From assembly GCA_030583745.1 (NCBI GenBank), contig CP129473.1, positions 616,211-680,210 of the forward strand: DNA of 64,000 nucleotides, given 5' to 3'. The notes beneath the pieces were generated by a model. The model ran no database searches and was not told the DNA's origin. It saw only the letters and a list, made by a program, of their open reading frames with translations. The DNA is from Minisyncoccota bacterium (lineage in GTDB: Bacteria > Patescibacteriota > Minisyncoccia > Phycocordibacterales > BOKC01). This document shows, piece by piece, positions 4,742 to 61,920 of the stretch (its first letter is position 1; each line of letters begins with the position of its first letter). Made by a program: the position numbers and the translations under genes.

Positions 4742-5506
4742 TTGTCTATTTTAAAAAACAAAGAGGAAATAGAAATTTTGCGGGAGGGCGGACGACGTTT
4801 GGCTCGGATTCTTGCCAAGATAAAAAGTGCCTCAAAACCCGGAATTAGCACCAAAGATCTTGATGATTTAGCTTTTCGGTTGGCAGATGAAGGTGGCGAC
4901 AAACCGGCGTTTTTAAATTATTGTCCGGAAGAAAATGGCCGGCCATATCCAGCAACCCTTTGCGTTTCAGTAAATGAGGAATTGGTCCACGGCCTGCCTT
5001 CTCCCGAAAAAATTTTAAAAGACGGGGATATTATTTCTGTTGATATGGGTCTTAATCATCTGGGTCTTATAACAGATTCAGCAATAACTTTTCCGATAGG
5101 CAAGATTCAAAAAGAAACTCAGCTCTTACTTAAGGCGACAAGGGAATGTCTTGAAACTGGAATTAAGGAAGCTAAATCAGGAAACTTTGTTGGTGATATC
5201 GGTTTTGCTATAGAGAAAACAGCCAAAAAATACGGTTTTGATTTGGCAAAAGGACTGGCCGGACACGGTGTTGGTCACAAGGTCCATGAGGATCCGCTTA
5301 TTCCGAATACTGGAAGGAGGGGGAATGGCATGAAGCTAAAAATTGGTATGGTTTTAGCGATTGAGCCAATGCTTTGTCTTGGCAGTGGTGAGATTTCTCT
5401 GGAAAAAGATGGATTTACTATTAGCACCAAAGACAAATCCCTTTGCGCTCATTTTGAACATACAATTGCGATTACCGAAAAAGGCCCGGAGGTGTTGACT
5501 TGTTGA
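4742..5506 (+). CDS. map: Methionine aminopeptidase type I
   Basis: The pita-bread metalloprotease motifs (D..D..H..E..E pattern) are consistent, and the gene follows adk. Confidence 0.88.
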   Translation: MSILKNKEEIEILREGGRRLARILAKIKSASKPGISTKDLDDLAFRLADEGGDKPAFLNYCPEENGRPYPATLCVSVNEELVHGLPSPEKILKDGDIISVDMGLNHLGLITDSAITFPIGKIQKETQLLLKATRECLETGIKEAKSGNFVGDIGFAIEKTAKKYGFDLAKGLAGHGVGHKVHEDPLIPNTGRRGNGMKLKIGMVLAIEPMLCLGSGEISLEKDGFTISTKDKSLCAHFEHTIAITEKGPEVLTC

Positions 5507-5591
5507 AGTTCGCGATTTTGCTATTTTTAGTAAATTCTTCTATACTTTTTGCATTATCAACTACAGACTGTTAGCTACAAATTAATTTACT

Positions 5592-6194
5592 ATGCACCCA
5601 AGCAAAGAAAAAACACTAGTTATCATTAAGCCCGATGGAATTCAGAGGACTTTGATCGGCGAGATTATTGGACGATATGAAAGAATCGGCTTAAAGCTCG
5701 TTGGGCTCAAAATTGTGGTGCCGAAAGAAGATCAAGTTCACGCTCACTACACAGTTGATCCGGAATGGATTCAAAAAACTGGTGAAAAGGCGATTTCGGC
5801 TTATGAGAAGAAAGGGCAAACTCCTCCCTCAACAGATCCGATGGAAGTCGGCAACAAAGTTTTGGAAAATTTGAAAAAATATTTAACATCCGGCCCGGTT
5901 GTGGCAATGGTTTGGCAAGGCGCTCATGCGGTTGAGGTTGTTCGAAAAATTACTGGAGGCACGGAACCCCGTTCAAGCGATGTCGGCACCATCCGAGGCG
6001 ATTTTGTATTGGATTCATATCAAATGGCTGACACTGACGGCCGAGCTATCAGAAATCTTATTCACGCTTCCGGCTCAACTGATGAAGCTCAAAAAGAAAT
6101 TTCTCTTTGGTTTGACGGAAATGAAATCGTAAATTATCGATTAGTTCAGGAACAAATCACATACGATGTAAATCTAGACGGGATTTTGGAGTAA
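5592..6194 (+). CDS. ndk: Nucleoside diphosphate kinase with a ~50-aa C-terminal extension
   Basis: LVIIKPDGIQRTLIGEIIGRYERIGLKLVGLK..HASGS core; 200 aa compared with ~140 typical. Confidence 0.88.
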   Translation: MHPSKEKTLVIIKPDGIQRTLIGEIIGRYERIGLKLVGLKIVVPKEDQVHAHYTVDPEWIQKTGEKAISAYEKKGQTPPSTDPMEVGNKVLENLKKYLTSGPVVAMVWQGAHAVEVVRKITGGTEPRSSDVGTIRGDFVLDSYQMADTDGRAIRNLIHASGSTDEAQKEISLWFDGNEIVNYRLVQEQITYDVNLDGILE

Positions 6195-8354: not shown

Positions 8355-9500
8355 CTAGTGGTGATGGTGGTGATGGTGGTGTTCTATTTTTGGTTTTTGA
8401 CCCTTATATTTTTCCAGCACAAAGACGGCAATCAATGTTGTTATTGGTATTGTCAGCACAAGGCCGATGCTTCCGACTATTGTTCGTAAGATTTCTAAGG
8501 CAAAAACTTCTTGATTCACAATCATTCCAATACTGGATTCGGAAATAGAAAAGAGCATGAGAAGTGGCAGGGCGGCACCGGTATAAGCTAAGGCCAGTGT
8601 GTTGACCAAAGCGCCGGCATGCTCGCGCCCGACTCGCAGGGCTTTGCCATAGACTTCTTTTTTGGAAAGGTTTGGATTTGTGCCATAAAGTTCGCTAACC
8701 ACGGCCGATTGGGTTATGGCAATATCGTCGAGTACTCCAAGAACGCCGATTATTATTCCCGCCAAAAGTAATCCGGAAAGATCAAGTTGGCCGAAGGTGC
8801 TGAAGTTTAGATATATGGCTTCGTCGCTTGCGAAACCGGACAGTCGGCCGATTTTAACTGAAAGAAAAGCTAAGACGCTTGTGATAGAAACTGCCAGAAT
8901 TGTTCCAGTGAACGCCACGGTTGATTCGCGATTGAATCCGTGGGTGAAATAGATTGCCAAAAAGAGAACAATTGTTGCAATTAAAGTGCTTGTTAGAACC
9001 GGCGGATACCCATTTAAAAGTAACGGCAGAAGTATATAAATAATGACCAAAAAAGTTCCAAATAATCCCAACAGCGCCCTAAGCCCTTGCCATCCTCCGA
9101 AAATTAGAATCGTAAACGCAAAAAGCAAAGAAAATATTATCAATGTGGGTCGTCGGTCCACGTCTCTGACAGAGAATATTTCTCTTCCGTCTATTGTTAT
9201 TAGAAAATTGAGAAAAAAGGTGTCTCCGATTTTCAGGGGGATGTAATCGTTTTGCAAAGATATTATTTCACCACTTCTTTCTCCTTCCATAATTCTGGCT
9301 TCCAAAACCTGAACCACCGTTTCTGTATCGGTGCCGGGAATTAGGACCTTTTCTTCAGAAACCACTTTCTCAACCTTTGCTTTCCATGCCCCCTGAAAAT
9401 CTTGATGAATTTCTTGACCAAGAGCGATTTGGTTTGCGGTCGGCAGGAGAAAAAAGAGCAATATTAAAAAAAATGTTTTTAATCTTGGCATTTTCTGCAC
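8355..9500 (-). CDS. YibE/F-family membrane protein with a natural C-terminal His8 tail
   Basis: Polytopic, YibE/F-like TM core. The C-terminus is ...KPKIEHHHHHHHH*, encoded by mixed CAC/CAT codons, and the gene lies next to Fur/Zur and a ZIP transporter. Confidence 0.7.
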   Translation of the reverse strand: MQKMPRLKTFFLILLFFLLPTANQIALGQEIHQDFQGAWKAKVEKVVSEEKVLIPGTDTETVVQVLEARIMEGERSGEIISLQNDYIPLKIGDTFFLNFLITIDGREIFSVRDVDRRPTLIIFSLLFAFTILIFGGWQGLRALLGLFGTFLVIIYILLPLLLNGYPPVLTSTLIATIVLFLAIYFTHGFNRESTVAFTGTILAVSITSVLAFLSVKIGRLSGFASDEAIYLNFSTFGQLDLSGLLLAGIIIGVLGVLDDIAITQSAVVSELYGTNPNLSKKEVYGKALRVGREHAGALVNTLALAYTGAALPLLMLFSISESSIGMIVNQEVFALEILRTIVGSIGLVLTIPITTLIAVFVLEKYKGQKPKIEHHHHHHHH

Positions 9501-21141: not shown

Positions 21142-21303
21142 ATGATTACGGACAATGTTAATGAAGTAAGCTCGGCTAAGAGAAAATTTCTGGAAAAGGT
21201 TGGGCGTTTGACAGCCGATTATCGACGCGAGGTCCAATCTGTCGCGGCTGTTCTGGAAAAAGAGCACCTGTCTCGTTTAAGTGAAGAATTAAAAAATTCT
21301 TAA
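21142..21303 (+). CDS. Hypothetical small protein (53 aa) whose stop overlaps the start of the next gene (TAATG)
   Basis: Preceded by an extended -10 'TGGTATAAT' at about 21126-21134. Confidence 0.35.
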   Translation: MITDNVNEVSSAKRKFLEKVGRLTADYRREVQSVAAVLEKEHLSRLSEELKNS

Positions 21304-22976
21304 TGTCTTCTGAATCAATAAAACCTAGTGCCGGAGAGGAGAAATTGGGACAGCCAATTTCGGAAGAGGGATTGGAAACTCCGGAAACTTTGAAAACTCC
21401 GGAAAAGCCAAGCGATGTCATCGCGACTATTGAAGGTGTTAATGGTGAGGTTGTGGCAGTTATGAATAGCGCTTACAAGAGGGTTGAAGGTTTGGGCGGC
21501 GATCCGAATCTTTTGCGAGATGCTGACCAAAAATTATCAGCCGGAATGGAAGCCGCCAAGAATGATTTTTTAAGAGAATTTGTTGACGCCGCGCCTGATG
21601 TCTTGCGAGCAAGGGTAAACGAAGTGGCTTCACTTTTAGCGACGATTAACGAACCTTCCGCTAAAGACTTAGAGCGAGAATTTGCATTGGATCCAGAAAC
21701 TGCCAAAGTCTATTTTACTTTAGCTAGTGCATTCAATAGTGTTTCGGAAAAGACTAGAGCAGAAAATATTGAAAATTCTAAAGAAGAAATCACACCCGGT
21801 TCATTAGTTACACGCCAGGGTTGGTCTGAACCCGGAAAAGTTTGGAAAATAGAAAACGGTCAGGCCTTTATTGAGGGTGTGGCTAATAGTGTTCCCCTAG
21901 ACGATCTTTCTTTATTTGAAGAAAAGATAGCAGAGCCAGAGACGCAACCTGTGAATGATTCAACACCTCTAGAAACGGTAGAAGTTAAAAATCCAACTGA
22001 ACAAGAATTTCAAAATAGAGAGGTTACGATTGAATCAGAGACACCGCCTGTAGTAGAGACAAAAAACGCGGAGATTCCAAAATCTGTGTTGAAGCAATTG
22101 AGTCCGGACAATCGGAATCTGATTCAAAAATTACCCGAGAAGACCTGGAATTTTTTGAGAGATAAAATTTTAACTCCGCCGATTTTTGCCACCAAACTTA
22201 TTGCCAGCCGAATTTCGCATAAAGCTCTGAGAGATGCCGGTGAAGTTCATCTCCGCTACGGATTTATCGGTTCCAGAGTCGGCACTCTTTTCAACAGTGT
22301 TTTGATTGATAGAGAAAAAACCGGATGGATTAGGTACGGCACAACCTTGGAGGGGATCCAGCAAAAATTTGATAAAACTGACGAGATTGCCAAAGAATAT
22401 GAAAGCCAGATCGCCGAGCTTGATAGACAGGAAAGAGAATTGTCGGCACAAGGGACACTTTCGTCTTCAGAAAGGTTAAAGATTGAGCATGTCAGAGAAC
22501 GTATAAACAGGAAATTGGAGCAAGTCAGAAACAAAAGAAATGCCTTGAGTCATCGGTCAGAAGAAGTCGGTGCCAGAATTAGTCGTTATGAAAATCGCCG
22601 TCAAGTTATTTCTGAAAACTTGATAAAGCGGGTTGAGTCGCGCCTTAAACCGCTCGAGTCCAGGATGGAGAAGATAAAATCCGCCAAGCAAAAATTGGAA
22701 GCCGAAACTCAAGAATTGAAGCGGGCGGTTGAAGAGAGACAAGCTCGGCTAGAAGATTTGAAGGCAAGGATGTCGGCAAATCCAAATCTAAAATCGGTCT
22801 TAAAACCCCGAAGCAAAGAAATTTCAGCGATTATGAAAAAAGCCGAAAAATTGATTGAATATAGGCAGACCAAAATAAGAGATTTTGACCGACAGATTTC
22901 GTTCTTGGTAGAAAGACTTAATCCCTATGACGAGATGAGGTCAAAGTTTCAAGGATTTATGAAATCACCAGTCTAA
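21303..22976 (+). CDS. Hypothetical protein (557 aa) with an acidic N-terminal region and a long C-terminal coiled-coil
   Basis: No recognisable catalytic motifs; the C-terminal 200 aa show a heptad-rich R/E/K pattern. Confidence 0.6.
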   Translation: MSSESIKPSAGEEKLGQPISEEGLETPETLKTPEKPSDVIATIEGVNGEVVAVMNSAYKRVEGLGGDPNLLRDADQKLSAGMEAAKNDFLREFVDAAPDVLRARVNEVASLLATINEPSAKDLEREFALDPETAKVYFTLASAFNSVSEKTRAENIENSKEEITPGSLVTRQGWSEPGKVWKIENGQAFIEGVANSVPLDDLSLFEEKIAEPETQPVNDSTPLETVEVKNPTEQEFQNREVTIESETPPVVETKNAEIPKSVLKQLSPDNRNLIQKLPEKTWNFLRDKILTPPIFATKLIASRISHKALRDAGEVHLRYGFIGSRVGTLFNSVLIDREKTGWIRYGTTLEGIQQKFDKTDEIAKEYESQIAELDRQERELSAQGTLSSSERLKIEHVRERINRKLEQVRNKRNALSHRSEEVGARISRYENRRQVISENLIKRVESRLKPLESRMEKIKSAKQKLEAETQELKRAVEERQARLEDLKARMSANPNLKSVLKPRSKEISAIMKKAEKLIEYRQTKIRDFDRQISFLVERLNPYDEMRSKFQGFMKSPV

Positions 22977-22977
22977 A

Positions 22978-23226
22978 ATGACAAATGTAAAAATGACAAA
23001 AGAAGAGAAAGAGCTTTTGAGAGATTTTGAAAAAGAACTCGCCGAGTTTGGGGTTTTTGTTCGAGACTTTGAAAAAAAGACTGAAAAACAGTTTGTTGAA
23101 ATTGAAAAAGATTTTGAGAAGCAAAAATTAGATTTTGAGAAATTAGAGGCAGAGATAATTGCTTTTGAAGAGAGACATGCAGAAGAGATTGATTCTTTGG
23201 CGATCAAATCTTTAATTAAAGAATAA
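22978..23226 (+). CDS. Hypothetical 82-aa coiled-coil protein with four DFEK repeats
   Basis: RDFEKELAEF / RDFEKKTEKQ / KDFEKQKLDFEKLEAE; translationally coupled to the upstream gene. Confidence 0.5.
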   Translation: MTNVKMTKEEKELLRDFEKELAEFGVFVRDFEKKTEKQFVEIEKDFEKQKLDFEKLEAEIIAFEERHAEEIDSLAIKSLIKE

Positions 23227-23267: not shown

Positions 23268-23489
23268 TCAGGCGGCCGTGGCAAGAGAGAGGTGTCTCGT
23301 CTTGGTGCCTTCTGCGGTAATTGTGATTACCGCTCCGTCGTTCATGGCTTGGAGGAAGTCGGTTACCAAAATTGACACCGCACGTCGCCGATCTCCGTCA
23401 TTCAAAAAAGGGTATTGCCTTTTTGTGGCAATAACCAATTTTTCCAACAGAGGGCGAAGCTCTTTTCCCCAGTCAAATTCTCCCCGCAT
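23268..23489 (-). CDS. Hypothetical small protein (73 aa)
   Basis: Stand-alone minus-strand ORF between two terminators; no recognisable motif. Confidence 0.35.
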   Translation of the reverse strand: MRGEFDWGKELRPLLEKLVIATKRQYPFLNDGDRRRAVSILVTDFLQAMNDGAVITITAEGTKTRHLSLATAA

Positions 23490-23584
23490 CGCTTTTCTCC
23501 TTCTGTGTTTTGCCTGTGTTTTGCCCGGACTCTCTATCTTTCATACCAAAAAAACAAAAAATAGTCAAATATTGACATAATTAT

Positions 23585-23730
23585 TAAACAGGAAACTGGA
23601 GGCAGAGAAAATCTGGCCCCGCTCCAGATCTCGCGAGAACCATGACTGGTGAACCAGTCTTTCTTCCGGCCTGCCGGAAAGAATCAACACAGCCCGCCCA
23701 AGTTGCGAAAGCAACTCGGGCGGTTTTTTT
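23585..23730 (+). promoter_or_regulatory. Structured 5' leader with an intrinsic terminator (candidate attenuator or riboswitch-like element) upstream of the 916-aa ATPase gene
   Basis: Three perfect hairpins (ctgg..ccag; gactgg-tgaa-ccagtc; ttccgg-cctg-ccggaa), then a GNRA-looped terminator 'gcccgcccaagttgc gaaa gcaactcgggcgg' followed by TTTTTTT, about 27 nt before the ATG. Confidence 0.55.
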
Positions 23731-23757
23731 ATGATACAATTATCAAAATAAAACACC

Positions 23758-26508
23758 ATGCCTGAAAGTTTCGGAAAAAATTTTGGCAAATTTGATTCAG
23801 TTGAAGCAGAATTGGAATATTTACGGGAGAAAGTTCGGGAAAAGGAGGCGGCTTTTGAGGGCGCCAAAGAGCGGCCGGAAACGGAAAAAATAATTTCCGA
23901 AGAAATAGAAAGCTATCGCCGAGAGCCGACAGCTGGCCCGAAAGTTGAAATTCAACCCTCTGAAACAAAGGGCATTATTGAAGGCCTTAAGCCCGAGCCA
24001 CACGACAAGCAAATGAGTGAGTTGGCCGCTCTCATTCAAGAGAAGGGAATTAAAAACGCTTTTGCCATTTTGGACAAAGTCGGCGACTCGCATTTGGAAG
24101 ATGACCTTCATCGCTTTTTGGTCCAATATGTCAAAGCCGGCTATAAGCTCGGGCTTAAAGAAAAAGAGCCGCTTTACCGCGCGCTTAATATGACGCTTTT
24201 TGAAATTCTTTTGCCGGAAGAATACCGAGATAAAAATGAGCAGCAAAAGCCACTGAAAGAATTGATTTCTTCAATGGAGCAATTTTATGCAGGTATGCTC
24301 TCAATTCATGATCCGAAAAAGTGGCCAAGCCACTTTTCCATAGAGTTGGCGATGCCGGCAGTTGGCGAGGAATTCAGTTTTTATGTTTCGGTGCCAACAG
24401 AAAAAAGTGAGTTGTTTGAAAAGCAGATCTTATCAGTTTTTCCGAATGCTAAAGTTATTGAACAAAAAGACGATTACAACATTTTTAATGAAGATGGCGC
24501 GTCAGTTGGCTCAATCCTTGGTTTATCTAATAAACCGATTTTTCCAATAAAAACTTATGAAGAATTTGATTATGACCCAATCAACTCACTACTCAACGCT
24601 TTTTCAAAGGTAGACAAGGTTGGTGAGGGTGCATCGATTCAGATTATTTTTAGCCCTTCTGGTGGCGGAGAGATTTTGCGGAAATTCAAATATGCTTTGG
24701 AAGAAATAAAAAAAGGTAAATCGGTTAAAGAAGCCGCCAAGGTGCCGATGAGTTTCGGTGGCGAAGTTGTCGGAACTTTAAGAGAGGTATTTAGTTCAAA
24801 CAAGAAAAAGACAACAGACAAAGACGGTATTCCGGTTCAGAGAAATGAAGAAGTTAATCAGCAGGCATTAGAAAACATCCAGAAAAAAATTTCTTCGCCG
24901 ATTATCAAGACTAATATCCGACTAGTTGCTTCTTCTCGAACCGAAGATGAAGCTAGCTCAATTTTGTCTGATTTGGAGTCGGCTTTTAACCAATTTGAAA
25001 ATACAGATGGCAATAAATTCAAATTCTTACGACTTTCAGGTAATAAATTATTTCAAATGCAAAAAGATTTTTCATTTCGGATGTTTCGTGACGACTATGC
25101 CCTGCCATTAAATTTAAAAGAGTTGACAAGTATTATGCACTTGAACACCGAAGCGGTGAAAAGCGCGCCGCAGTTGAAACGCGCCAAATCCGGATCGGCG
25201 CCGACGCCAAGCGGCTTGCCGGCAGATGGAGTTTTGCTCGGGGTAAACCGGCATCGCAATTTGGCAACCGAGGTTAAAATTACTGACGAAGACCGGCTCC
25301 GACATTTTTACATCATCGGTCAGACCGGCACCGGTAAATCCTCGCTTTTGAAAAATTTGATTATTCAGGATATTGAAAAAGGTAATGGTGTCTGCTTTAT
25401 TGATCCGCACGGCGTTGATATTTTGGATGTTTTGGCAAATGTGCCGAAAGAGAGGTATGAAGATGTTATCTATTTTGATCCGAGCTACACTGCCCGGCCG
25501 ATGGGACTAAATATGCTGGAGTTTGACCAGAATTTTCCGGAGCAAAAAACCTTTGTGGTCAACGAGCTTTTCAGTATTTTCCAAAAGCTTTATGGTGGGG
25601 TTCCGGAATCAATGGGTCCGATGTTTGAACAATATTTCAGAAACGCGACAATGCTGGTCATTGAAGACCCGTCATCTGGCTCAACGCTTCTGGATGTTTC
25701 TCGTGTTATGGCCAATAAGTCCTACCGCGACCTCAAACTTTCCAAATGCAAAAATCCGATTGTTGTTCAGTTTTGGCGGGAAGTCGCCGAGAAAGCCGGC
25801 GGTGAAGCGGCTTTGGCAAATATCGTGCCTTATATCACCAGCAAATTTGACGTCTTTTTGGCCAACGACATTATGCGGCCGATTGTCGCTCAAGAAAAAT
25901 CAGCTTTGAATTTCCGAGAGATTATGGATAGTCGCAAAATTCTTCTGGTCAATTTGGCAAAAGGACGTTTGGGTGACATTAACAGCAATCTCTTGGGACT
26001 CATAATTGTTGGCAAAATTTTAATGGCCGCACTGTCGCGAGTGGATTCTTTTGGTAAAGAAATTCACCCTTTTTATCTTTATATCGACGAGTTTCAAAAT
26101 GTTACGACCGATTCAATCTCAACTATTTTATCCGAAGCCAGAAAATACAAATTGTCTCTGACCATCGCCCATCAATTCATCGCCCAGCTTGAAGAGGGAA
26201 TTCGTGACTCGGTTTTCGGCAATGTCGGCTCTCTTTCGTCTTTTAGAATCGGCTCGGATGATGCCGAATACTTGGAAAAACAATTCTCGCCGGTTTTCTC
26301 CGCCAAAGATTTGATGAATATAGACAATTATAATTGCTACTTGAAACTTTTGGTTCACGGCCGGCCGGTTACGCCGTTTAATATTGAAATTCCGCCGCCC
26401 AAACCCGGCCGGCCGGAAGTTGCCGACAAATTAAAAGAACTCTCTTACTTAAAATTCGGCCGCGACCGTGAGGAGATTGAGCAGGAGATAATGAGAAAAC
26501 ATCAGTAA
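23758..26508 (+). CDS. Large P-loop ATPase with a C-terminal TraD/VirD4 (T4CP)/FtsK-HerA-like motor domain and a ~470-aa N-terminal region of unknown function
   Basis: Walker A YIIGQTGTGKSS, Walker B FYLYIDEFQN, and EARKYKLSLTIAHQFIAQL, which resembles the T4CP 'RKYG..L.QS.sQL' motif. Confidence 0.7.
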   Translation: MPESFGKNFGKFDSVEAELEYLREKVREKEAAFEGAKERPETEKIISEEIESYRREPTAGPKVEIQPSETKGIIEGLKPEPHDKQMSELAALIQEKGIKNAFAILDKVGDSHLEDDLHRFLVQYVKAGYKLGLKEKEPLYRALNMTLFEILLPEEYRDKNEQQKPLKELISSMEQFYAGMLSIHDPKKWPSHFSIELAMPAVGEEFSFYVSVPTEKSELFEKQILSVFPNAKVIEQKDDYNIFNEDGASVGSILGLSNKPIFPIKTYEEFDYDPINSLLNAFSKVDKVGEGASIQIIFSPSGGGEILRKFKYALEEIKKGKSVKEAAKVPMSFGGEVVGTLREVFSSNKKKTTDKDGIPVQRNEEVNQQALENIQKKISSPIIKTNIRLVASSRTEDEASSILSDLESAFNQFENTDGNKFKFLRLSGNKLFQMQKDFSFRMFRDDYALPLNLKELTSIMHLNTEAVKSAPQLKRAKSGSAPTPSGLPADGVLLGVNRHRNLATEVKITDEDRLRHFYIIGQTGTGKSSLLKNLIIQDIEKGNGVCFIDPHGVDILDVLANVPKERYEDVIYFDPSYTARPMGLNMLEFDQNFPEQKTFVVNELFSIFQKLYGGVPESMGPMFEQYFRNATMLVIEDPSSGSTLLDVSRVMANKSYRDLKLSKCKNPIVVQFWREVAEKAGGEAALANIVPYITSKFDVFLANDIMRPIVAQEKSALNFREIMDSRKILLVNLAKGRLGDINSNLLGLIIVGKILMAALSRVDSFGKEIHPFYLYIDEFQNVTTDSISTILSEARKYKLSLTIAHQFIAQLEEGIRDSVFGNVGSLSSFRIGSDDAEYLEKQFSPVFSAKDLMNIDNYNCYLKLLVHGRPVTPFNIEIPPPKPGRPEVADKLKELSYLKFGRDREEIEQEIMRKHQ

Positions 26509-26596
26509 CTGTCCCTTCCTTTATCAGATTCTCACATACAATATAAATACGAACCTGATATAATATAGAAGTTATTTATAACTTAAAGGTTCGTGT

Positions 26597-27262
26597 ATGG
26601 CTAGAAGAAAAGATAAAGAAAAAGCTATTCAACTCCGACTTAAAGGAATGAGTTATAGCCAAATTAAGCAACAGCTCGGACTAAGTAAAAGTACATTAAG
26701 CGGTTGGCTTTCTGATTATCCTTTGTCTCCTGAAAGGATTAAAGAGCTAAGAGATATCAATCCTAGAAGAATTGAGAATTTTCGGAATACGATGAGGAAG
26801 AAAAGAGAGGAAAGATTGTCAAAAGTTTATGAAAGAGTAAAAAAAGATATTAGCAAACTTAATAAAAGAGAGATATTTTTATGTGGCCTGTTTTTGTATT
26901 GGGGTGAAGGATATAAGACGGCTGTTACAACAACGGCTGTAGCCAACACAGATCCTGCCGTACTCAAATTCTTTATTAAATGGCTCAAAACTATTCACGC
27001 TCCCTTTGATAAAATAAAGGTAAAAATTCATTTATATAAGGATATGGATAAAGATGAAATTGTAAGATATTGGAGTAAAGAACTAAAATTACCCACAAAG
27101 TGTTTTACTCAAATATATATAAAAAAATCCAAATTATCTGGTTTGAATTATAAAAATGGTTTTGGTAAGGGAACTTGCAACGTCATGATACACAACAGAG
27201 ACCTGAACGAGTATGTGATAATGGCAATGAAGTATCTTCAAGAAGAAGTTTCTAAAAACTAG
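26597..27262 (+). CDS. HTH-domain protein with a possible LAGLIDADG-like nuclease fold
   Basis: N-terminal resolvase-type HTH (GMSYSQIKQQLGLSKSTL). The downstream motif LFLYWGEGYK resembles a single LAGLIDADG motif. Confidence 0.4.
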   Translation: MARRKDKEKAIQLRLKGMSYSQIKQQLGLSKSTLSGWLSDYPLSPERIKELRDINPRRIENFRNTMRKKREERLSKVYERVKKDISKLNKREIFLCGLFLYWGEGYKTAVTTTAVANTDPAVLKFFIKWLKTIHAPFDKIKVKIHLYKDMDKDEIVRYWSKELKLPTKCFTQIYIKKSKLSGLNYKNGFGKGTCNVMIHNRDLNEYVIMAMKYLQEEVSKN

Positions 27263-27289
27263 AAATTATTGTAATATACTTTCAGATTT

Positions 27290-27363
27290 GCGCCTATAGC
27301 TCAATTGGTAGAGCGTCCGTCTTATACACGGAAGGTTTCTTGGTTCGAGTCCAAGTGGGCGCA
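27290..27363 (+). tRNA. tRNA with anticodon UAU, formally tRNA-Ile reading AUA
   Basis: Cloverleaf: acceptor gcgccta/tgggcgc; D-arm gctc-aattggta-gagc; anticodon stem tccgt/acgga with loop cTTATAc; T-arm cttgg-ttcgagt-ccaag; 6-nt variable region. Confidence 0.75.
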
Positions 27364-27423
27364 TTATCAGCTTTTATTATCCGCGTATATCAGCGGGTAT
27401 TTTACATCTGCGTTAATCCGCGT

Positions 27424-30280: not shown

Positions 30281-30607
30281 CTACTTAACCAAACTTCCTT
30301 CCGAAACGGATTGGTCAACCGAAAGCAGAGAAAAGGTGTTGGCTTCGCCGGCGGCCAAAATCATGCCCTGACTTTGGAGCCCCATAAGACTTCTTGGTTC
30401 TAAGTTATAGACGAAAGCGTATTTATTGCCAATCAAAACTGAAACATCTTCAAAATAAAGACCAATGCCGGCGATAATCTGTTTCTCACCTTCATGTCCA
30501 AAAGAGACTATGAGTTTTACAAGTTTTAGGGAACCATCAACTCTCTCGGCGCTTAAAATTTTGCCAACTCGAATCTCAATCTTTTTTAAATCTTCTATTG
30601 TAGCCAT
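30281..30607 (-). CDS. tRNA-binding protein (CsaA/Trbp111 family, EMAP-like OB fold)
   Basis: MATIEDLKKIEIRVGKILSAERVDGS..LKLVKL..G. The longer ORF to 30904 would extend across a tandem repeat and overlap tRNA-Ser, so the start is placed at the internal ATG. Confidence 0.75.
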   Translation of the reverse strand: MATIEDLKKIEIRVGKILSAERVDGSLKLVKLIVSFGHEGEKQIIAGIGLYFEDVSVLIGNKYAFVYNLEPRSLMGLQSQGMILAAGEANTFSLLSVDQSVSEGSLVK

Positions 30608-30626
30608 GTTTTTATGATTTGCGAAC

Positions 30627-30878
30627 GTCGCCTTCGCAAACCCACTGGCGGACTTCGTCACGCCGTAGGTTCGCTTCGGCGAATCGAATGTTGCCTTCGC
30701 AAACCCACTGGCGGACTTCGTCACGCCGTAGGTTCGCTTCGGCGAACCGAATGTTGCCTTCGCAAACCCACTGGCGGACTTCGTCACGCCGTAGGTTCGC
30801 TTCGGCGAACCGAATGTTGCCTTCGCAAACCCACTGGCGGACTTCGTCACGCCGTAGGTTCGCTTCGGCGAACCGAAG
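30627..30878. repeat. 63-bp tandem repeat x4 that directly abuts the tRNA-Ser 3' end
   Basis: Unit 'gttgccttcgcaaacccactggcggacttcgtcacgccgtaggttcgcttcggcgaaccgaat'. It is GC-rich and open in three frames; in the longer ORF it would encode a 4x 21-aa repeat FGSPKRTYGVTKSASGFAKAT. Confidence 0.85.
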
Positions 30879-30879
30879 G

Positions 30880-30965
30880 CGGAGGAGGTGGGATTTGAAC
30901 CCACGAGGGGATTTCTCCCCTACGGATTAGCAATCCGCTCCGTTAGACCACTCCGGCACTCCTCC
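30880..30965 (-). tRNA. tRNA-Ser(GCU)
   Basis: Acceptor ggaggag/ctcctcc, 3-bp D-stem, anticodon loop tTGCTAa, long variable arm aggggagaaatcccct, and T-arm gtggg-ttcaaat-cccac. Confidence 0.9.
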
Positions 30966-34603: not shown

Positions 34604-36202
34604 ATGGCAAACGGTTTCAATATTCAAAAGATAAAAATTGGCAACCAAAAAATTCCGAGCGAAATTCTAAGCATTGTTCCGGAAGAATCAGCCAAGCACT
34701 ATAAATTTGCCCCACTTGGTATAAGGGACAGTGTTTTGGAATTAGGCATAGTTGATCCAGATAATATTGAGGCAAGAGATGCTCTAAATTTCATTTCGGC
34801 CAAAACCAGGTTGCCTTACAAACTTTTTTTGATTTCGGAAGAAGATTTTGAAAAGGTTTTGTCTATGTATCGCGGATTGTCAGAAGAGGTGACAAAAGCC
34901 CTTTCCCAACTTGAGGGTAACTCTGAAGCCGTCACCGGCGTGTCTTTCAGTCAGGAGGAAGAAGATTCAATAAAAGAAAAAAAACTCAAAGACACAAGTG
35001 AGAAGCAAGAGACAAAAATAGTTGAAACGGCTCCAATCACAAAAATCGTTGCCACAATTTTGCGTTATGCCGCTGAAGGTAATGCTTCTGATGTCCACAT
35101 TGAAAAAATGACGGAGAATATAAGGGTTCGTTTTCGGGTGGACGGTGTTTTAAATACAAGTCTAGTTTTACCTGCCAAGGTTCATTCTGCGATTGTCGCA
35201 AGAATAAAACTTTTATCAAACATGAAGTTGGATGAAAAGCGTAAGCCACAAGACGGAAGGTTTAGCGCTAAAATCGATGGTCGGAAGATTGATTTTCGTG
35301 TTTCAACCTTTCCAACTTATCATGGCGAGAAGGTGGTGATGAGAATTTTGGATTCCGGAAAAGGTATGAAGAAGCTCGAAGAGCTTGGATTTTCGGAAGA
35401 CAGCTTGGTGATGGTTAGAAAAGCCATAAAAAAACCTTACGGCTTGATTTTGATTTCTGGTCCGACCGGTAGCGGAAAGACAACTACTCTATATTCAATC
35501 CTCAATGAATTTGATAGGGAAAAAAACAACGTGCTTTCTTTGGAGGATCCGATTGAATACAACATTGAGGGCGTTAACCAGTCGCAAGTCCGCTCAGATA
35601 TTGGCTATACTTTCGCTAACGGTTTGAGAACTACTTTGCGCCAAGATCCAGACATTATAATGGTCGGTGAAATCAGAGATGCGGAAACTGCCGGTCTTGC
35701 GATTCAGGCCGCTTTGACTGGACATTTAGTTCTGGCAACAATCCACACCAATAATGCTGCGGGTGTCATTCCGCGTCTTATAGACATGAAGGTTGACCCG
35801 TATCTCATTGCCCCTACTTTGATTTTGGCAATGGCGCAAAGACTTGTAAGCTTGCTGTGTCCGGGGGCCGGCACGCCGACTCCGATTGAAGGTTCAATCA
35901 AAATGATGATAGACAAGCAGTTTAGTGATCTACCCGAAGAATTTCGCAAGAAACTGCCGATTGGGAATGAGGTTTACCGCTTGTCGCCCGGGCCCGAATG
36001 CCCGTCTGGTACTAGGGGCAGGATAGTCGTTTCCGAAATGTTTGAGATGGATAAAGATGTTGAGAGCGCGATTCTGAAGGGCTCGTCTGAACTTGAAATA
36101 GACAAAATCTTGAGAAATAAAGGCATGCTTAAAATGAAAGAAGATGCGATTTTGAAGTCATTTAAACGACTCATACCTTTTGAAGAGATATTGGGTTTGT
36201 AG
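34604..36202 (+). CDS. pilB: Type IV pilus assembly ATPase PilB (GspE family)
   Basis: Walker A LISGPTGSGKTTTL, Asp and His boxes, and a tetracysteine CPGAG...CPSG. Confidence 0.92.
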   Translation: MANGFNIQKIKIGNQKIPSEILSIVPEESAKHYKFAPLGIRDSVLELGIVDPDNIEARDALNFISAKTRLPYKLFLISEEDFEKVLSMYRGLSEEVTKALSQLEGNSEAVTGVSFSQEEEDSIKEKKLKDTSEKQETKIVETAPITKIVATILRYAAEGNASDVHIEKMTENIRVRFRVDGVLNTSLVLPAKVHSAIVARIKLLSNMKLDEKRKPQDGRFSAKIDGRKIDFRVSTFPTYHGEKVVMRILDSGKGMKKLEELGFSEDSLVMVRKAIKKPYGLILISGPTGSGKTTTLYSILNEFDREKNNVLSLEDPIEYNIEGVNQSQVRSDIGYTFANGLRTTLRQDPDIIMVGEIRDAETAGLAIQAALTGHLVLATIHTNNAAGVIPRLIDMKVDPYLIAPTLILAMAQRLVSLLCPGAGTPTPIEGSIKMMIDKQFSDLPEEFRKKLPIGNEVYRLSPGPECPSGTRGRIVVSEMFEMDKDVESAILKGSSELEIDKILRNKGMLKMKEDAILKSFKRLIPFEEILGL

Positions 36203-36253
36203 TCTAAAAGCTGTAGATTTGAAATTTATATTCTGAAACTGTATATTACTACT

Positions 36254-36649
36254 ATGCCTGATAAAAAAAATTATAAAATTTTATTGTTAGACGATGACCG
36301 ACTACTTCTGAATATGTACGAGAAGAAGTTTAGCGCTTATGGTCATGAAGTCTTAGCAACACTAAGCAGTGCCGAAGCTCTTTCAAAACTTCGCGAAGGA
36401 TATAACCCCGACATTTTAATACTTGATGTTGTTATGCCTCATCCGGACGGAGTCGAGGTCTTAAAGATTATTAGGGAAGAAAAACTTGCTGACTCTGCCA
36501 CCGTGGTAATGCTTACCAATCAAGGTGCATCTCAAGACATCGAAAAGGCAAAGCAGTATGGTATAGATGGCTACATTATCAAAGCCGCTCTTATCCCCTC
36601 CGAAGTTGCCATTGAAGTTTTAAAAATCGCCGAAAGCAAGAAAAGATAA
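36254..36649 (+). CDS. CheY-like response regulator receiver (PilH/PilG-like)
   Basis: DD..D..K receiver residues (LLLDDDRLL, ILDVVMP). Confidence 0.85.
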   Translation: MPDKKNYKILLLDDDRLLLNMYEKKFSAYGHEVLATLSSAEALSKLREGYNPDILILDVVMPHPDGVEVLKIIREEKLADSATVVMLTNQGASQDIEKAKQYGIDGYIIKAALIPSEVAIEVLKIAESKKR

Positions 36650-36776
36650 TTTTTTTCTATTTCTTCATTTCCCCAGTCTTTATCTGGCGTATATTTAAAT
36701 CACGGGTTAAAATAGATTTAGGAAACTAGACAAAATTATTTTTAAATTTTGTCCGGATTCAAATTTCCTAGATAAA

Positions 36777-37838
36777 ATGAATTATAAACAAGAATTGGAC
36801 GAGCTCGTAAAAATTGTTTTGGCCGAAGGCGGGTCCGATTTGCATTTAGGCGAGGGTAGGAAGCCGACAATTAGAGTCAACGGCTCACTTATCCCAATTT
36901 CTAACAAAGAATCCATCAACCGTGAGTATATATACGGCATGATTGACGAGCTTTTGACCACTGAAAACAAAAAAAGGTTTTTGGCCTTGAAAAATGTTGA
37001 TTTCGCTTATAGTCATGTCAACAAAGAGAGATTTAGAGGTAACTCATATTTTCAACAAGGTCTTATAGCCATTTCTCTAAGATATATTCCGGAAAAAATC
37101 AGAACTTTTGAGGAGCTAAATTTGCCTCCGATTTTGGAGAATTTTACTGAAAAGAAGCAAGGTTTTTTCTTGGTTGTCGGACCGGTTGGTCAAGGTAAGA
37201 GCACGACATTGGCGGCCATGATTGAATTGATAAACCAAAGGCGTGCCGAGCACATAATCACTATCGAAGACCCGATTGAGTATGTTTTCAAGGAAAACAA
37301 ATCAATAATCGACCAGCGGGAAATCAGGACTGATAGTCCAGATTTTTACAGTGCTTTGAAAAATGTTTTCAGGCAGGATGTTAATGTAGTGATGGTCGGC
37401 GAAATGCGCGAGACCGAGACGATTGCAACGGCCGTTACCGCCGCCGAAACTGGACATTACATTCTTTCAACTCTACACACAAATGACGCGGCGCAAACTG
37501 TTGAGAGAGTAATTGATGCTTTTCCGGCTGCCCAACAAAACCAAATTCGTCTTCAGCTCGCTGGCAGTTTAACCGGAATATTTTCACAAAGATTGGTGCC
37601 GACAATTGCCGGTGGTTTGGTGCCAGCTTATGAGCTTTTGATAAATAATACCGCCGTCTCAAACGTCATTAGAGAAAACAGAGTTTATGAAATTTCGACC
37701 ATTATTGAAACCGGCTTAGGCGAAGGTATGATAAGTCTAAACCGCTCGCTTGTTGAATTGGTCCGGTCTGGACAGATTACCGCTGAAAATGCTTTTAGGT
37801 ATTCAAACGACGTGAAGAGTCTGGAAAAACTCCTGTAA
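36777..37838 (+). CDS. pilT: Twitching-motility retraction ATPase PilT
   Basis: Walker A VVGPVGQGKSTTLAAMI, HTNDAAQTVERV, GMISLN. Confidence 0.92.
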   Translation: MNYKQELDELVKIVLAEGGSDLHLGEGRKPTIRVNGSLIPISNKESINREYIYGMIDELLTTENKKRFLALKNVDFAYSHVNKERFRGNSYFQQGLIAISLRYIPEKIRTFEELNLPPILENFTEKKQGFFLVVGPVGQGKSTTLAAMIELINQRRAEHIITIEDPIEYVFKENKSIIDQREIRTDSPDFYSALKNVFRQDVNVVMVGEMRETETIATAVTAAETGHYILSTLHTNDAAQTVERVIDAFPAAQQNQIRLQLAGSLTGIFSQRLVPTIAGGLVPAYELLINNTAVSNVIRENRVYEISTIIETGLGEGMISLNRSLVELVRSGQITAENAFRYSNDVKSLEKLL

Positions 37839-37888
37839 TAGTTTTGTAGTTTGTAGTTGTTAGTTTATAGTTTGATATTAATAGACAG

Positions 37889-38242
37889 ATGGGCAGAGGA
37901 TATAAAGATTTAATTGTTTGGCAGAAGGCAAAAAATTTTTGTGTAAAAATATACAGAGTGACTGAGGAGTTTCCTAAATCAGAAACTTTTGGATTAGTAA
38001 GTCAATTAAGAAGGTCGTGTGTATCTATCCCGTCAAATATAGCAGAGGGCTCCAAAAGAAACAGTAAAAAAGACCAAAATCAATTTTACTCTATTGCCTA
38101 CGGTTCGGGAGCCGAGGTTGAAACCCAGTTGGATATTTCAAAAGAATTATTTCCAACATTAAAAGATAAAATTACCGCTATTGAAAATGAGCTGACTGAG
38201 ATTATGAAGATGTTAAATAAGTTAAGAAGTTATAAACTATAG
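37889..38242 (+). CDS. Four-helix-bundle protein (TIGR02436, the '23S rRNA intervening-sequence protein' family)
   Basis: LIVWQKA..F...Y.....FPK.E.FGL.SQLRR...SI..NIAEG; flanked by inverted 'tagttt' hexamer repeats. Confidence 0.85.
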   Translation: MGRGYKDLIVWQKAKNFCVKIYRVTEEFPKSETFGLVSQLRRSCVSIPSNIAEGSKRNSKKDQNQFYSIAYGSGAEVETQLDISKELFPTLKDKITAIENELTEIMKMLNKLRSYKL

Positions 38243-38276
38243 TCTATCAACCATAAACTAAAAACTATAAACTGAT

Positions 38277-39479
38277 ATGTTATTCAAATACCACGCCATA
38301 GATAATAGTGGAGCTGAAAAAGAGGGAATAATTGATGCTTTGAACAAAGATGTGGCTATCAGCTCTTTGCAAAACAGAGGTCTTGTAGTTTCGTCTGTTG
38401 AGCTTCTTGAGAAACCATCAATCTTAAGAAAAATTCCGTTTCTAAATAGGGTTGCTTCAAAAGATATTGTGATCGTGACCCGTCAGATGGCGACCTTGTT
38501 TGAGGCGCAAGTTTCAGCTTTAAGAGTTTTTCGTCTGCTGTCTTCGGAAACTGATCACCCGGTCTTGAAGAGGTCTTTGGGTCAAGTCGCTGATGATTTG
38601 CAGGAAGGAAGTTCAATTTCCGCCGCCTTGGAAAAGCATCCGCATATTTTTTCAGACTTCTATGTCAGCATGGTCAAAGTCGGTGAAGAGTCCGGAAGAT
38701 TGAGTCAGGTTTTTGTTTACCTCGCTGATTATTTGGACCGGACTTATGCCGTAACAACCAAAGCCAAGCACGCCCTAATTTATCCGACTTTTGTTATTAT
38801 CGCTTTTATAGGCGTGATGGTTCTTTTGTTTACTGTGGTTATTCCGAGAATTACCCCGATTTTGCTTGAGACAGGAGTTGATTTGCCGGTTTACACTAAA
38901 GCTGTTTTGTGGATGAGCTCTTTTCTTTTGAACTACGGAATTTATCTTTTGGTGGCACTTATTATCATGACTTTTGTCTTTTTTAAATATTTCCGGACAC
39001 AAAGCGGGCGTTTGACCTTGGATAATTTAAAACTTAGCGTGCCCTATGTCAGCAATTTGTACCAGAAACTTTATTTGACCAGAATTGCCGACAATATGAA
39101 TACTATGACTTCAAGCGGTGTTTCGATGATTCAAGCCATTGAATCAACTGCCGAAGTTGTTGACAATGAGATTTTCAAAGAGATTCTGCAGGACGCCGCT
39201 CTGAAAGTGAAAGCCGGCAAGTCGCTTTCTTCGGCTTTGGCCGAATATCGTGAAGTGCCGAGCATTATGACCCAGATGATAAAAGTTGGCGAAGAGACCG
39301 GCGAGCTTGCGCATATTTTGGATACTTTGGCGAAATTTTACCAACGTGAAGTTATCACCGCGGTTGACACCTTGACCGATATGATCCAGCCGGCAATCAT
39401 TGTCGTCTTGGGTCTTGGTGTCGGTTTTCTTCTCGCCGCTGTGCTTATGCCAATCTACAACATCGCCGGTGCATTTTAA
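38277..39479 (+). CDS. pilC: Type IV pilus inner-membrane platform protein PilC (GspF family)
   Basis: Duplicated T2SS-F domains and 3 TM segments. Confidence 0.9.
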   Translation: MLFKYHAIDNSGAEKEGIIDALNKDVAISSLQNRGLVVSSVELLEKPSILRKIPFLNRVASKDIVIVTRQMATLFEAQVSALRVFRLLSSETDHPVLKRSLGQVADDLQEGSSISAALEKHPHIFSDFYVSMVKVGEESGRLSQVFVYLADYLDRTYAVTTKAKHALIYPTFVIIAFIGVMVLLFTVVIPRITPILLETGVDLPVYTKAVLWMSSFLLNYGIYLLVALIIMTFVFFKYFRTQSGRLTLDNLKLSVPYVSNLYQKLYLTRIADNMNTMTSSGVSMIQAIESTAEVVDNEIFKEILQDAALKVKAGKSLSSALAEYREVPSIMTQMIKVGEETGELAHILDTLAKFYQREVITAVDTLTDMIQPAIIVVLGLGVGFLLAAVLMPIYNIAGAF

Positions 39480-61655: not shown

Positions 61656-61920
61656 GAGGTTCAGAAAATTCTGATCCGAAAATTTTGGAGGGAGGATCAA
61701 AAGGCAGCTCTGCAAGTTTATGTGTGTTTACCCCACCCGCCCGTGCGCACACACCAATCATCGCCGTTTTTGCGGAGACATTATAAAACGGCGATGATTG
61801 CTCCCATGGAAAGTGCTATACTTTAAGTGCAATCAATCCGACAGGTCGTCTTTCCTAATGGCCGTCCCAGACAGTTCAAGGCGACTTGGATTGATTGCAC
61901 CGGGGCGGCCATTTAAGTTT

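Follow-up and report, generated by a model that had tools for sequence, protein, structure and literature searches.

A coupling-type core ATPase, a structured leader and a tRNA-linked LAGLIDADG-like gene: probably three independent units side by side on a Patescibacteria chromosome

The interval 23585–27363 of a 64-kb stretch of chromosome from a Minisyncoccota bacterium (contig CP129473.1, positions 616,211–680,210; this whole stretch is referred to here as the window) encodes a 916-amino-acid (aa) ATPase of the type IV coupling protein (T4CP) family, preceded by a structured leader, and a 221-aa protein with a helix-turn-helix (HTH) and a LAGLIDADG-like motif, followed by a tRNA-Ile gene. 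A preliminary description of the interval had joined these, together with a small operon upstream, into a possible DNA-processing or defence module. The open reading frames (ORFs) of 53, 557, 82, 916 and 221 aa and the tRNA-Ile gene all lie where that description put them, and the motifs that it read are present: GQTGTGKSS (residue 521), DEFQN (777) and RKYKLSLTIAHQ (795) in the ATPase, and LFLYWGEGY (98) in the 221-aa protein. Comparison with related loci indicates that the interval probably consists of three independent units – the ATPase, a structured RNA, and the 221-aa gene with its tRNA – joined by lineage-specific rearrangement. Its main features are the following:

23585–23757, plus strand: structured leader, seen in the sequence (fold z = -5.3)
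23758–26508, plus strand: ORF of the 916-aa soluble T4CP-family ATPase, characterised from Pfam/NCBIfam, more than 1,900 homologues, an AlphaFold2 (AF2) model, Foldseek and hhalign
24145–25197, plus strand: DUF8128 domain of the ATPase (aa 130–480), from precomputed Pfam PF26449 on homologues; predicted local distance difference test score (pLDDT) mostly 75–93
25318–25344, plus strand: Walker A GQTGTGKSS (aa 521–529), invariant in a 33-sequence alignment and aligned with the TrwB P-loop
26086–26175, plus strand: Walker B DEFQN (aa 777–781) and the RKYKLSLTIAHQ motif (aa 795–806), invariant in the same alignment
26449–27363, plus strand: cassette of the ATPase 3' tip, the 221-aa gene and tRNA-Ile, replaced in one 99% strain (L087/L088); a second 99% strain (L090) has a 100% identical 221-aa gene
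26597–27262, plus strand: ORF of the 221-aa HTH and LAGLIDADG-like protein (HTH_23/28/40)
26888–26917, plus strand: motif LFLYWGEGYK in the sequence of the 221-aa protein (from residue 98)
27289–27364, plus strand: tRNA-Ile(UAU), anticodon TAT, the conserved partner of the 221-aa gene in 8 of 8 independent lineages of the Candidate Phyla Radiation (CPR)

The ATPase was compared across 170 loci, the window included, with a subset of 80 species-representative loci used for counts of neighbouring genes. In the window, the leader, the ATPase, the 221-aa protein and the operon of 53-, 557- and 82-aa proteins are co-oriented and close together, and three or four close relatives (L001/L002, L090, L091) keep this gene order. 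PADLOC reports a generic HerA/mad8-type similarity, and an ATPase paired with a nuclease-like protein superficially resembles the HerA–nuclease defence pairs. These observations favour a single DNA-processing or anti-phage module under attenuator or riboswitch control. Synteny, however, largely refutes it. The gene set is kept in order in the closest relatives only, and across the 170 loci no 221-aa homologue adjoins the ATPase outside the close lineage of the window. The 221-aa gene is absent beside the ATPase in a 99% strain and in an 82% relative (L007), and in other lineages it stands after ftsH with no ATPase. Of the 81 genes immediately downstream of the ATPase in the species-representative loci, 26 are ndk; the 557-aa operon is near the ATPase in 7–9 of the 170 loci; and the leader is lacking in relatives at 77–82% identity. 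As to defence, the PADLOC match is a generic one to mad8 (9e-12) on the ATPase domain, accompanied by coiled-coil noise on the 557-aa protein and by no second component or partner. Distant homologues of the ATPase adjoin relaxase and VirB4-type genes, and the locus as a whole is not syntenic, both of which tell largely against the module. A single module is thus highly improbable.

The 221-aa gene is tied to a tRNA gene and to the ftsH–recG neighbourhood, not to the ATPase. On long contigs its homologue is found after ftsH and before recG or other genes, and in L089 the ATPase is on the far side of smpB–ftsH from it. From the arrangement in these other lineages it follows that the lineage of the window has the ATPase block between ftsH and the 221-aa gene.

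All 17 ORFs of the family that were examined, from nine independent CPR lineages, are followed by a tRNA gene within -10 to +31 nt; the background in the window is 6 of 63 genes with a tRNA no more than 100 nt away. The adjoining tRNA is Ile(UAU) in eight lineages (once inverted) and Gln(UUG) for a 30%-identical paralogue. A tRNA-Ile(UAU) is present in L087, L091, L007, L001, L170, L173, L178, L180 and L182, with a sequence that differs by lineage through compensatory stem changes. The UAU anticodon is uncommon for tRNA-Ile in bacteria, in which CAU with lysidine is usual; a search of the literature on tRNA-Ile(UAU) in Patescibacteria found nothing relevant. The tRNA linkage of this LAGLIDADG-like family is the most novel observation at the locus, the ATPase being of a kind already noticed.

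The linkage extends to viral sequences. A scan of IMG/VR found 23 distant full-length relatives of the 221-aa protein (22–34% identity) on contigs of 15–527 kb. For nineteen of these a tRNA is no more than 100 nt away; most are embedded in tRNA arrays, which reach 21 genes in 5.5 kb, and the relatives are scattered next to many different tRNAs. Viral contigs of 100–527 kb were seen to carry dense tRNA arrays with 221-type ORFs of ~220 aa interspersed (L184–L206).

In Paceibacterota the family has more than 2,000 homologues, all of ~220 aa and 55–77% identical. The core L100-Y-W-(G)-E104-G105-x-K107...N117 is invariant across CPR and viral members, and many residues beyond the LYWGEG motif are invariant within the CPR members. 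The HTH and LAGLIDADG-like motif recognised in the preliminary description are upheld by profile searches: besides the matches to HTH_23/28/40, the best sequence match of the family profile in the PDB is the LAGLIDADG homing endonuclease I-DmoI, at E = 0.004 and, with a more diverse alignment, at 7e-5. In this alignment LYWGEGxK...N corresponds to the second motif of I-DmoI, 'LYVAEGDK...N'. The 221-aa protein resembles homing endonucleases also in its added DNA-binding HTH, and differs in having a single LAGLIDADG-like domain, with an extra helix in the AF2 model (pLDDT 86.7).

The cassette at the end of the ATPase gene varies between nearly identical strains. Aligned with its L087 counterpart, the ATPase gene shows few differences before ~26449 and many in the remainder, as far as its stop codon. 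L087/L088 lack the 221-aa gene and carry a tRNA-Ile(UAU) of another sequence, its stem changes being compensatory; identity resumes right after the tRNA 3' end. This pattern of sparse and dense differences, together with the resumed identity, implies that 26449–27363 was exchanged as a unit. Such a swap would be the footprint expected of homing with co-conversion, and ordinary recombination with a diverged donor leaves the same pattern; it is one case. In L007 the slot after the ATPase contains a tRNA and an 87-aa GIY-YIG-like ORF (9095–9358, as read from the sequence) but no 221-aa gene. The GIY-YIG-like ORF sits between tRNA-Ile and recG.

Most probably, the 221-aa protein is a dimeric, site-specific DNA-binding protein acting at tRNA genes, and is likely a nuclease; its site of action, as a homodimer, would be the tRNA-Ile(UAU) gene or its immediate vicinity. 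A free-standing homing-type element is slightly favoured over a domesticated factor of the tRNA locus, as a tentative assignment. On this assignment the family may constitute a clade of LAGLIDADG-type homing endonucleases not described before, free-standing, with a single domain and an HTH and with tRNA genes as targets, common to Patescibacteria chromosomes and the tRNA arrays of large phages, and the cassette swap would represent homing with co-conversion of the tRNA. Like the free-standing homing endonucleases in phage tRNA clusters, the 221-aa genes are found beside or inside tRNA clusters and show presence/absence polymorphism with replaced flanks. T4 SegB is such a free-standing homing endonuclease in a phage tRNA cluster, and since it is a GIY-YIG enzyme the analogy is one of lifestyle, not of family.

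Several results weigh against a homing endonuclease. Foldseek searches of the model against the PDB and BFVD found nothing significant, with no LAGLIDADG enzyme near the top, so that the fold is neither confirmed nor contradicted; no Pfam LAGLIDADG model was reached at cut-off, and LAGLIDADG_3 was reached weakly by 5 of 37 members (best E 0.008). The family is also conserved in the manner of core genes, which is unusual for a selfish homing gene. The same facts speak for a domesticated host factor, which could regulate transcription at the tRNA locus, or bind tRNA or DNA and be required wherever tRNA-Ile(UAU) is in use: identity across the more than 2,000 clusters is similar to that of the ATPase, the slot after ftsH and before tRNA-Ile is stable in many lineages, many CPR-invariant residues lie beyond the motif, and the fold searches found no LAGLIDADG fold. 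WhiA, a LAGLIDADG-derived regulator with an HTH, is a precedent for such domestication. A host factor is harder to reconcile with a gene that is present or absent between 99% strains with its flanks replaced, that is absent from the 82% relative with a GIY-YIG-like ORF in its slot, that has a paralogue at a different tRNA, and that has relatives scattered in viral tRNA arrays. The most conserved feature of the family is, moreover, the catalytic-type E-G-x-K core, and domesticated LAGLIDADG proteins typically lose the catalytic core. Domestication is possible, and is ranked just below the homing-type element.

The ATPase has a different distribution. It is encoded in at least 598 GTDB species-representative genomes, all of its homologues come from Parcubacteria/Paceibacterota, and the nearest named relative is a Candidatus Paceibacter metagenome-assembled genome. 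The best 120 homologues are 59–99% identical, nearly all of full length, and all have PF26449 (DUF8128) on the N-terminal part. In the 80 species-representative loci ndk is the commonest downstream gene, with 9 cases at the second position in addition to the immediate ones, and map is the commonest upstream gene (12 of 78 immediate neighbours, and 14 at the second position). These flanking counts place the ATPase at the end of the S10–spc–secY–adk–map block. No relaxase or type IV secretion system (T4SS) genes (VirB4, VirB6) were found in the 64-kb window or in the 3.5–10 kb flanks at the other 169 of the 170 loci. By its context, the ATPase is a conserved core chromosomal gene and not a mobile or defence gene; the earlier remark that no gene of the interval has an obvious housekeeping role does not hold for it.

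The protein is laid out as an N-terminal helical region (aa 1–130), the alpha/beta DUF8128 domain (aa ~130–480) and a VirD4/HerA-type P-loop domain (aa ~490–890). The preliminary description had seen a fused N-terminal domain with no recognisable fold; this is Pfam DUF8128, and the two-domain architecture is conserved and common with plasmid proteins. A phmmer search with the DUF8128 domain against 1.84 billion representatives gave 1,001 matches, and in the best 150 of them the domain is in the N-terminal part of the protein, those of full length having ~790–1,120 aa. A literature search on DUF8128 found nothing relevant.

On sequence comparison, the protein appears to be a soluble P-loop ATPase of the VirD4/T4CP branch of the FtsK–HerA superfamily, with DUF8128 as a family-specific N-terminal domain. 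The ATPase half contains long invariant runs in the 33-sequence alignment. Pfam models match the C-terminal half weakly but above cut-off (T4SS-DNA_transf 21.8 vs 20.1; TraG-D_C 24.6 vs 22; DUF87 28.2 vs 23.2), and Pfam also finds FtsK_SpoIIIE P-loop similarity. TrwB_AAD_bind covers the P-loop only, at 19.4 bits vs a cut-off of 20.5, and many homologues carry precomputed PF10412. The best NCBIfam match is TIGR03743 TraD (3.5e-12, 45.6 bits vs a cut-off of 366), and all of the NCBIfam T4CP models (TraD, VirD4-like, CD1115) are far under cut-off, with conju_CD1115 at 30.9 vs 250. By sequence profile the nearest solved protein is TrwB, through its P-loop, and the Walker B region aligns with TrwB 'IDE...RKAGLRVVAGLQ'. 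The VirD4/TraD/HerA-type motor of the preliminary description is thus supported as a clade by Pfam/NCBIfam, Foldseek and the TrwB profile match.

Placement within the clade is less firm. The membrane anchor of canonical T4CPs is absent: no transmembrane segment was found in the ATPase, the maximum 19-residue Kyte–Doolittle mean being 1.8, inside the ATPase core (residue 741), with nothing in the N-terminal 480 aa. In the AF2 model the alpha/beta N-domain (residues ~140–460) is fairly confident, and the P-loop domain is interrupted by a helical insertion of low confidence; helices modelled at 582–725, between Walker A and Walker B, have pLDDT below 50. Overall the model is of moderate quality (pLDDT 66.7, with the ATPase core partly below 50). 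In Foldseek searches of the PDB its matches are TrwK/VirB4 at 5e-9 (~900 columns, TM-score 0.22), HerA at 1e-5 and TrwB/VirD4 at 6e-5. The missing anchor weighs against a VirD4-like identity, and since the best structural match is VirB4, not VirD4, and TM-scores are low (0.22), the assignment within the clade is not firm.

These structural matches raise the alternative that the protein works as a VirB4-like energising ATPase, peripheral to the membrane with an N-domain and a C-terminal ATPase, and not as a VirD4-like receptor. The top 13 Foldseek matches in the PDB are full-length TrwK/VirB4 structures over ~600–930 columns (5e-9 to 6e-7, vs 6e-5 for TrwB), headed by TrwK/VirB4 of R388 (PDB 7o42, 8rtd), and the ATPase resembles VirB4 in being soluble, in having two domains and in its length of ~900 aa. 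TrsD-type proteins related to the VirB4 N-terminus have been reported in Patescibacteria (PMC12102498). A VirB4 role is nevertheless improbable. The TM-score is only ~0.22, neither AAA_10 nor CagE_TrbE_VirB matches, and TIGR00929 reaches 16.6 bits vs a cut-off of 643; by sequence the protein is closest to TrwB and TraD; unlike TrwK/VirB4 it has no VirB3, VirB6 or VirB8 neighbours; and a Bacillus plasmid homologue adjoins a relaxase and coexists with a genuine AAA_10 VirB4.

Relatives outside the CPR are found in phages and plasmids. PHROG 5156 (function unknown; e.g. Bacillus phage G gp156) matches ATPase residues 202–914 with E = 9e-78, and tblastn finds homologues 21–26% identical over residues ~142–915 in Bacillus phages (phage G gp156, TP-84), as well as homologues in 577 plasmid records from Bacillus, Streptomyces, haloarchaea and Sulfolobus. 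Examples, with roles unannotated, are Bacillus phage G 90946–93210, SPO1 gp27.4 and Haladaptatus plasmid NZ_CP085331 60842–64423; in SPO1-like phages the match is to the ATPase half only. On two B. subtilis plasmids, "DUF87" proteins of 885 and 913 aa are encoded directly upstream of a Replic_Relax relaxase. Conjugal-transfer genes lie downstream: the annotation of the larger plasmid includes TcpD/TcpE, and on the smaller Pfam confirms a separate AAA_10 ATPase of VirB4 type. Aligned by hhalign, the CPR family profile matches the plasmid protein at 99.7% (E = 2e-26, 651 columns, positions 178–886), spanning both DUF8128 and the ATPase. The plasmid homologues are likewise soluble. The VirD4 of pLS20 was considered as the plasmid counterpart and rejected; gene 48 is a canonical 786-aa T4CP with two transmembrane helices, from a separate lineage (PMC8557374).

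Because the hhalign match to the relaxase-adjacent plasmid proteins covers both domains, DUF8128 joined to a T4CP motor is the architecture with which this lineage of soluble coupling-type ATPases began, among the conjugative elements of monoderms. The Bacillus plasmid 'DUF87 domain-containing' ATPases (885–913 aa; e.g. NZ_CP154917, NZ_OX419581) and the CPR protein have the two domains and solubility in common; they differ in sequence (21–26% identity) and in setting, conjugation operons there and a housekeeping context in the CPR, and the CPR protein has an extra helical region of ~130 aa at its N-terminus. The position of the plasmid relatives, upstream of a relaxase in operons with their own VirB4, is that of a conjugative coupling protein, and in Paceibacterota the gene has become a conserved chromosomal 'orphan' without a relaxase. 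Ancestry from plasmid-type coupling ATPases fits the reported derivation of the Patescibacteria T4SS from monoderm conjugation machinery (PMC12102498; see also PMC12857230).

Compared with VirD4/TrwB/TraD themselves, the ATPase belongs to the same P-loop clade: Walker A, Walker B and 'RK..L.(L/V)..A.Q' align with TrwB, a helical region is modelled at low confidence between Walker A and B, and distant homologues adjoin relaxases. It differs from them in carrying DUF8128 (~350 aa) and a 130-aa helical extension in place of the N-terminal anchor, in having no relaxase or T4SS genes nearby, and in being a core chromosomal gene rather than one of mobile elements. Proteins of the same kind have been counted in the phylum by Quinonero-Coronel et al. 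2025 (PMC12102498), who found 5,713 VirD4-like T4CP homologues across 2,918 Patescibacteria genomes, of which only 148 lie close to virB4. These orphan T4CPs resemble the 916-aa ATPase in phylum, in kind of protein, in distance from virB4 and in the absence of a relaxase, and its gene is very probably among those counted. The published work is a census; it does not include the DUF8128 architecture, the absence of the anchor, the ribosomal-operon and ndk context, or the link to relaxase-adjacent plasmid proteins.

As to function, the most probable reading is an NTP-driven protein of T4CP ancestry that assembles into a ring, serves as translocase or substrate receptor and has been kept as a core gene; the ring would recruit or translocate a DNA or protein substrate. 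The leading guess for its partner, a tentative one, is a chromosomal Patescibacteria T4SS encoded elsewhere in the genome. For S. epibionticum the T4CP homologue was reported to be dispensable for epibiotic growth and the T4SS genes essential (PMC12102498), which weakens the proposed partnership. That result, and the distance of nearly all Patescibacteria T4CP homologues from virB4 in the same census, argue instead for a housekeeping DNA translocase, FtsK- or HerA-like and engaged in segregation, repair or DNA uptake, that is now independent of any T4SS. The ~60% identity across the class, the setting among ribosomal, adk, map and ndk genes, and the DUF87/HerA and FtsK_SpoIIIE P-loop similarity point the same way. 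Such a translocase is unlikely even so: neither a NurA-like protein nor another nuclease or repair partner is found among the ATPase neighbours, HerA/FtsK family models are far under cut-off (HerA model NF040819 scores 13 bits vs 970, and DUF87 matches at domain level only), and the only homologues with an informative context are conjugative.

The third unit is the leader before the ATPase, in and around which the following elements were read:

23573–23581, plus strand: extended -10-like box TGACATAAT, before the leader (putative, from the sequence)
23596–23627, 23644–23659 and 23661–23684, plus strand: the three hairpins of the leader
23642–23734, plus strand: 30-codon upstream ORF (uORF) through hairpins 2 and 3 and the terminator
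23694–23730, plus strand: intrinsic terminator, stem 23694–23723 with seven T to 23730 (12 bp, one A·C mismatch, GAAA loop), 27 nt before the ATG
23732–23740, plus strand: extended -10-like box TGATACAAT, after the terminator (putative, from the sequence)

The three hairpins and the GNRA-looped terminator had been noted in the preliminary description and are present. The leader, a structured stretch of 145 nt, is real, specific to a species-level lineage and not a feature of the ATPase family. It folds far better than shuffled sequences, with 0 of 200 shuffles as good. Copies were found by blastn (word size 9, window and 169 loci) only in strains at least 98% identical: L087/L088, where the leader is 100% identical, and L090, where it has three substitutions (one in a linker, one at a terminator base and one changing A-U to G-U). 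It is not present upstream of the ATPase orthologue in the 82%, 78% and 77% relatives (L007, L001, L091), and in the 80 species-representative loci the gap upstream of the ATPase is mostly less than 100 nt, too short to hold it. Terminator-like hairpins are found upstream of the ATPase in 25 of 156 loci; most of these were read, though not individually checked, as terminators of upstream genes, and the terminator was discarded as a feature of the family. Rfam gave nothing at gathering score for the leader (best permissive E = 0.32, driven by the terminator), and SRP RNA, 6S RNA and a T-box were considered from the sequence and dropped.

The leader would be a short RNA transcribed independently, or else a terminator or attenuator peculiar to the lineage. 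The preliminary description had taken the arrangement as typical of an attenuator or riboswitch, and as a cis-acting attenuator the leader would set termination against read-through into the ATPase by translation of the uORF through the terminator or by a bound factor. The strong terminator ends 27 nt short of the ATG, no plus-strand gene lies ahead of it that it could terminate, and the uORF, spanning hairpins 2 and 3 and the terminator, would permit translation-coupled read-through. Two of the three L090 substitutions are synonymous in the uORF frame and one keeps its base pair, three changes that have no statistical weight. The likeness is to leader-peptide attenuators, which also combine a promoter-like box, a structured leader, a Rho-independent terminator before the ATG and a short ORF through the terminator; E. 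coli pyrBI is an intrinsic-terminator attenuator with a leader peptide. The leader differs from these in lacking an antiterminator, conservation in orthologues and an Rfam family, and in having a second promoter-like box 3' of the terminator. When the 3' arm of the terminator is removed, the only alternative pairing is a weak one of 6 bp (z = -1.2), which gives no evident classical antiterminator, and no Shine–Dalgarno sequence for the uORF is evident by reading. Confinement to near-identical strains means that no covariation test is possible in either direction. Through the TGATACAAT box, which lies 3' of the terminator and ahead of the ATG, the ATPase may be transcribed from an extended -10 promoter of its own, in which case the leader would be a separate RNA of ~140 nt. 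Attenuation of the ATPase by the leader is, on balance, rather unlikely, and a riboswitch found no support in Rfam.

Upstream of the leader lie the operon that had been drawn into the module and a small divergent gene:

21142–23226, plus strand: operon of three ORFs, for 53-aa, 557-aa coiled-coil and 82-aa DFEK-repeat proteins
21142–21303, plus strand: 53-aa ORF
21303–22976, plus strand: 557-aa ORF, with an acidic N-terminus and a C-terminal coiled coil
22978–23226, plus strand: 82-aa ORF, with four DFEK repeats
23268–23489, minus strand: 73-aa gene, divergent from the leader and conserved in relatives

The three genes of the operon, a fast-evolving unit, always travel together, and by tblastn and iterated hidden Markov models (HMMs) the loci with the trio near the ATPase belong to one sub-clade. 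Spacers between trio and ATPase are 0.2–3.5 kb, and the orientation is once opposite. The 557-aa protein evolves fast, being 33% identical where the ATPase is 78% identical. The 557/82-aa operon was rejected as a general partner of the ATPase, iterated HMMs over the 170 loci having reached the 7–9 cases only. A T4SS component was likewise rejected for the 557-aa protein: PF07996 matches under cut-off (E = 4e-4) in the coiled-coil region, SMC, Rad50 and tape-measure matches fall on the same stretch, and all were treated as coiled-coil noise. A possible SH3/KOW-like segment was seen in this protein by eye.

The 73-aa gene on the minus strand was missed in the preliminary description, as were the identity of DUF8128 and a palindrome, GTCAA-N3-TTGAC, at 23564–23576, upstream of the 73-aa start. 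Copies of the gene are found in L087 (69–293), L090 (3008–3232) and L007 (2776–3006). Its body is a hypervariable or recombination patch, with ~56% protein identity between strains whose flanking DNA is 99–100% identical, and the protein has no Pfam or PHROGs family match. The sequence TTGACA here forms half of the palindrome. In L007 the palindrome is kept beside the 73-aa homologue (about 3064–3076) and the plus-strand gene downstream of it differs from that of the window; it is probably an operator of the 73-aa gene or of the divergent promoter rather than a simple -35 box. Between the 73-aa gene and the ATPase L007 has 3 kb of unrelated genes, which include a RelE/ParE-like toxin–antitoxin pair directly upstream of the ATPase (5369–5874, read from the sequence).

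The rest of the window is ordinary chromosome, with genes for a P-type ATPase, tmRNA, SmpB, FtsH, RecG, LigA, GatA, ArgRS, PilB and PilC, and probably also the ribosomal-protein/SecY/Adk/Map region, judging from ORF sizes compared with annotated relatives. A type IV pilus cluster at 34604–39479 contains a PilB-type ATPase (T2SSE) and PilC (T2SSF), both confirmed, with a 353-aa ORF between them. At the window end, 61798–63468 encodes a large serine recombinase (Resolvase, Recombinase and Zn_ribbon_recom), in a segment with a GC content of ~0.50 vs 0.40 elsewhere, which suggests an integrated element. A 63-bp tandem repeat (4.1 copies, 98% matches) at 30622–30877 lies between tRNA-Ser (30878–30965, minus strand) and the gene at 30281–30904; it reads as a 21-aa repeat in a long ORF and is probably non-coding. 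By eye, the C-terminal part of the protein of that gene resembles a Trbp111/CsaA-type tRNA-binding domain.

Adjacency in a single genome suggested a module that comparative synteny dissolves, a caution for scanning of this kind. For the ATPase, the result is a sharper description of the "orphan T4CP" of Patescibacteria: a soluble protein with a DUF8128 N-domain, a core-gene context and a two-domain ancestry in common with the relaxase-adjacent ATPases of monoderm plasmids, which makes the role of a coupling protein in bacteria without relaxases easier to test. For the 221-aa family, if the near-obligate association with tRNA genes in CPR bacteria and large phages alike reflects homing, a selfish element would be shaping tRNA loci and strain-level mosaicism in these reduced genomes; if the protein is instead a host factor, it would point to unknown biology around the decoding of AUA by tRNA-Ile(UAU).

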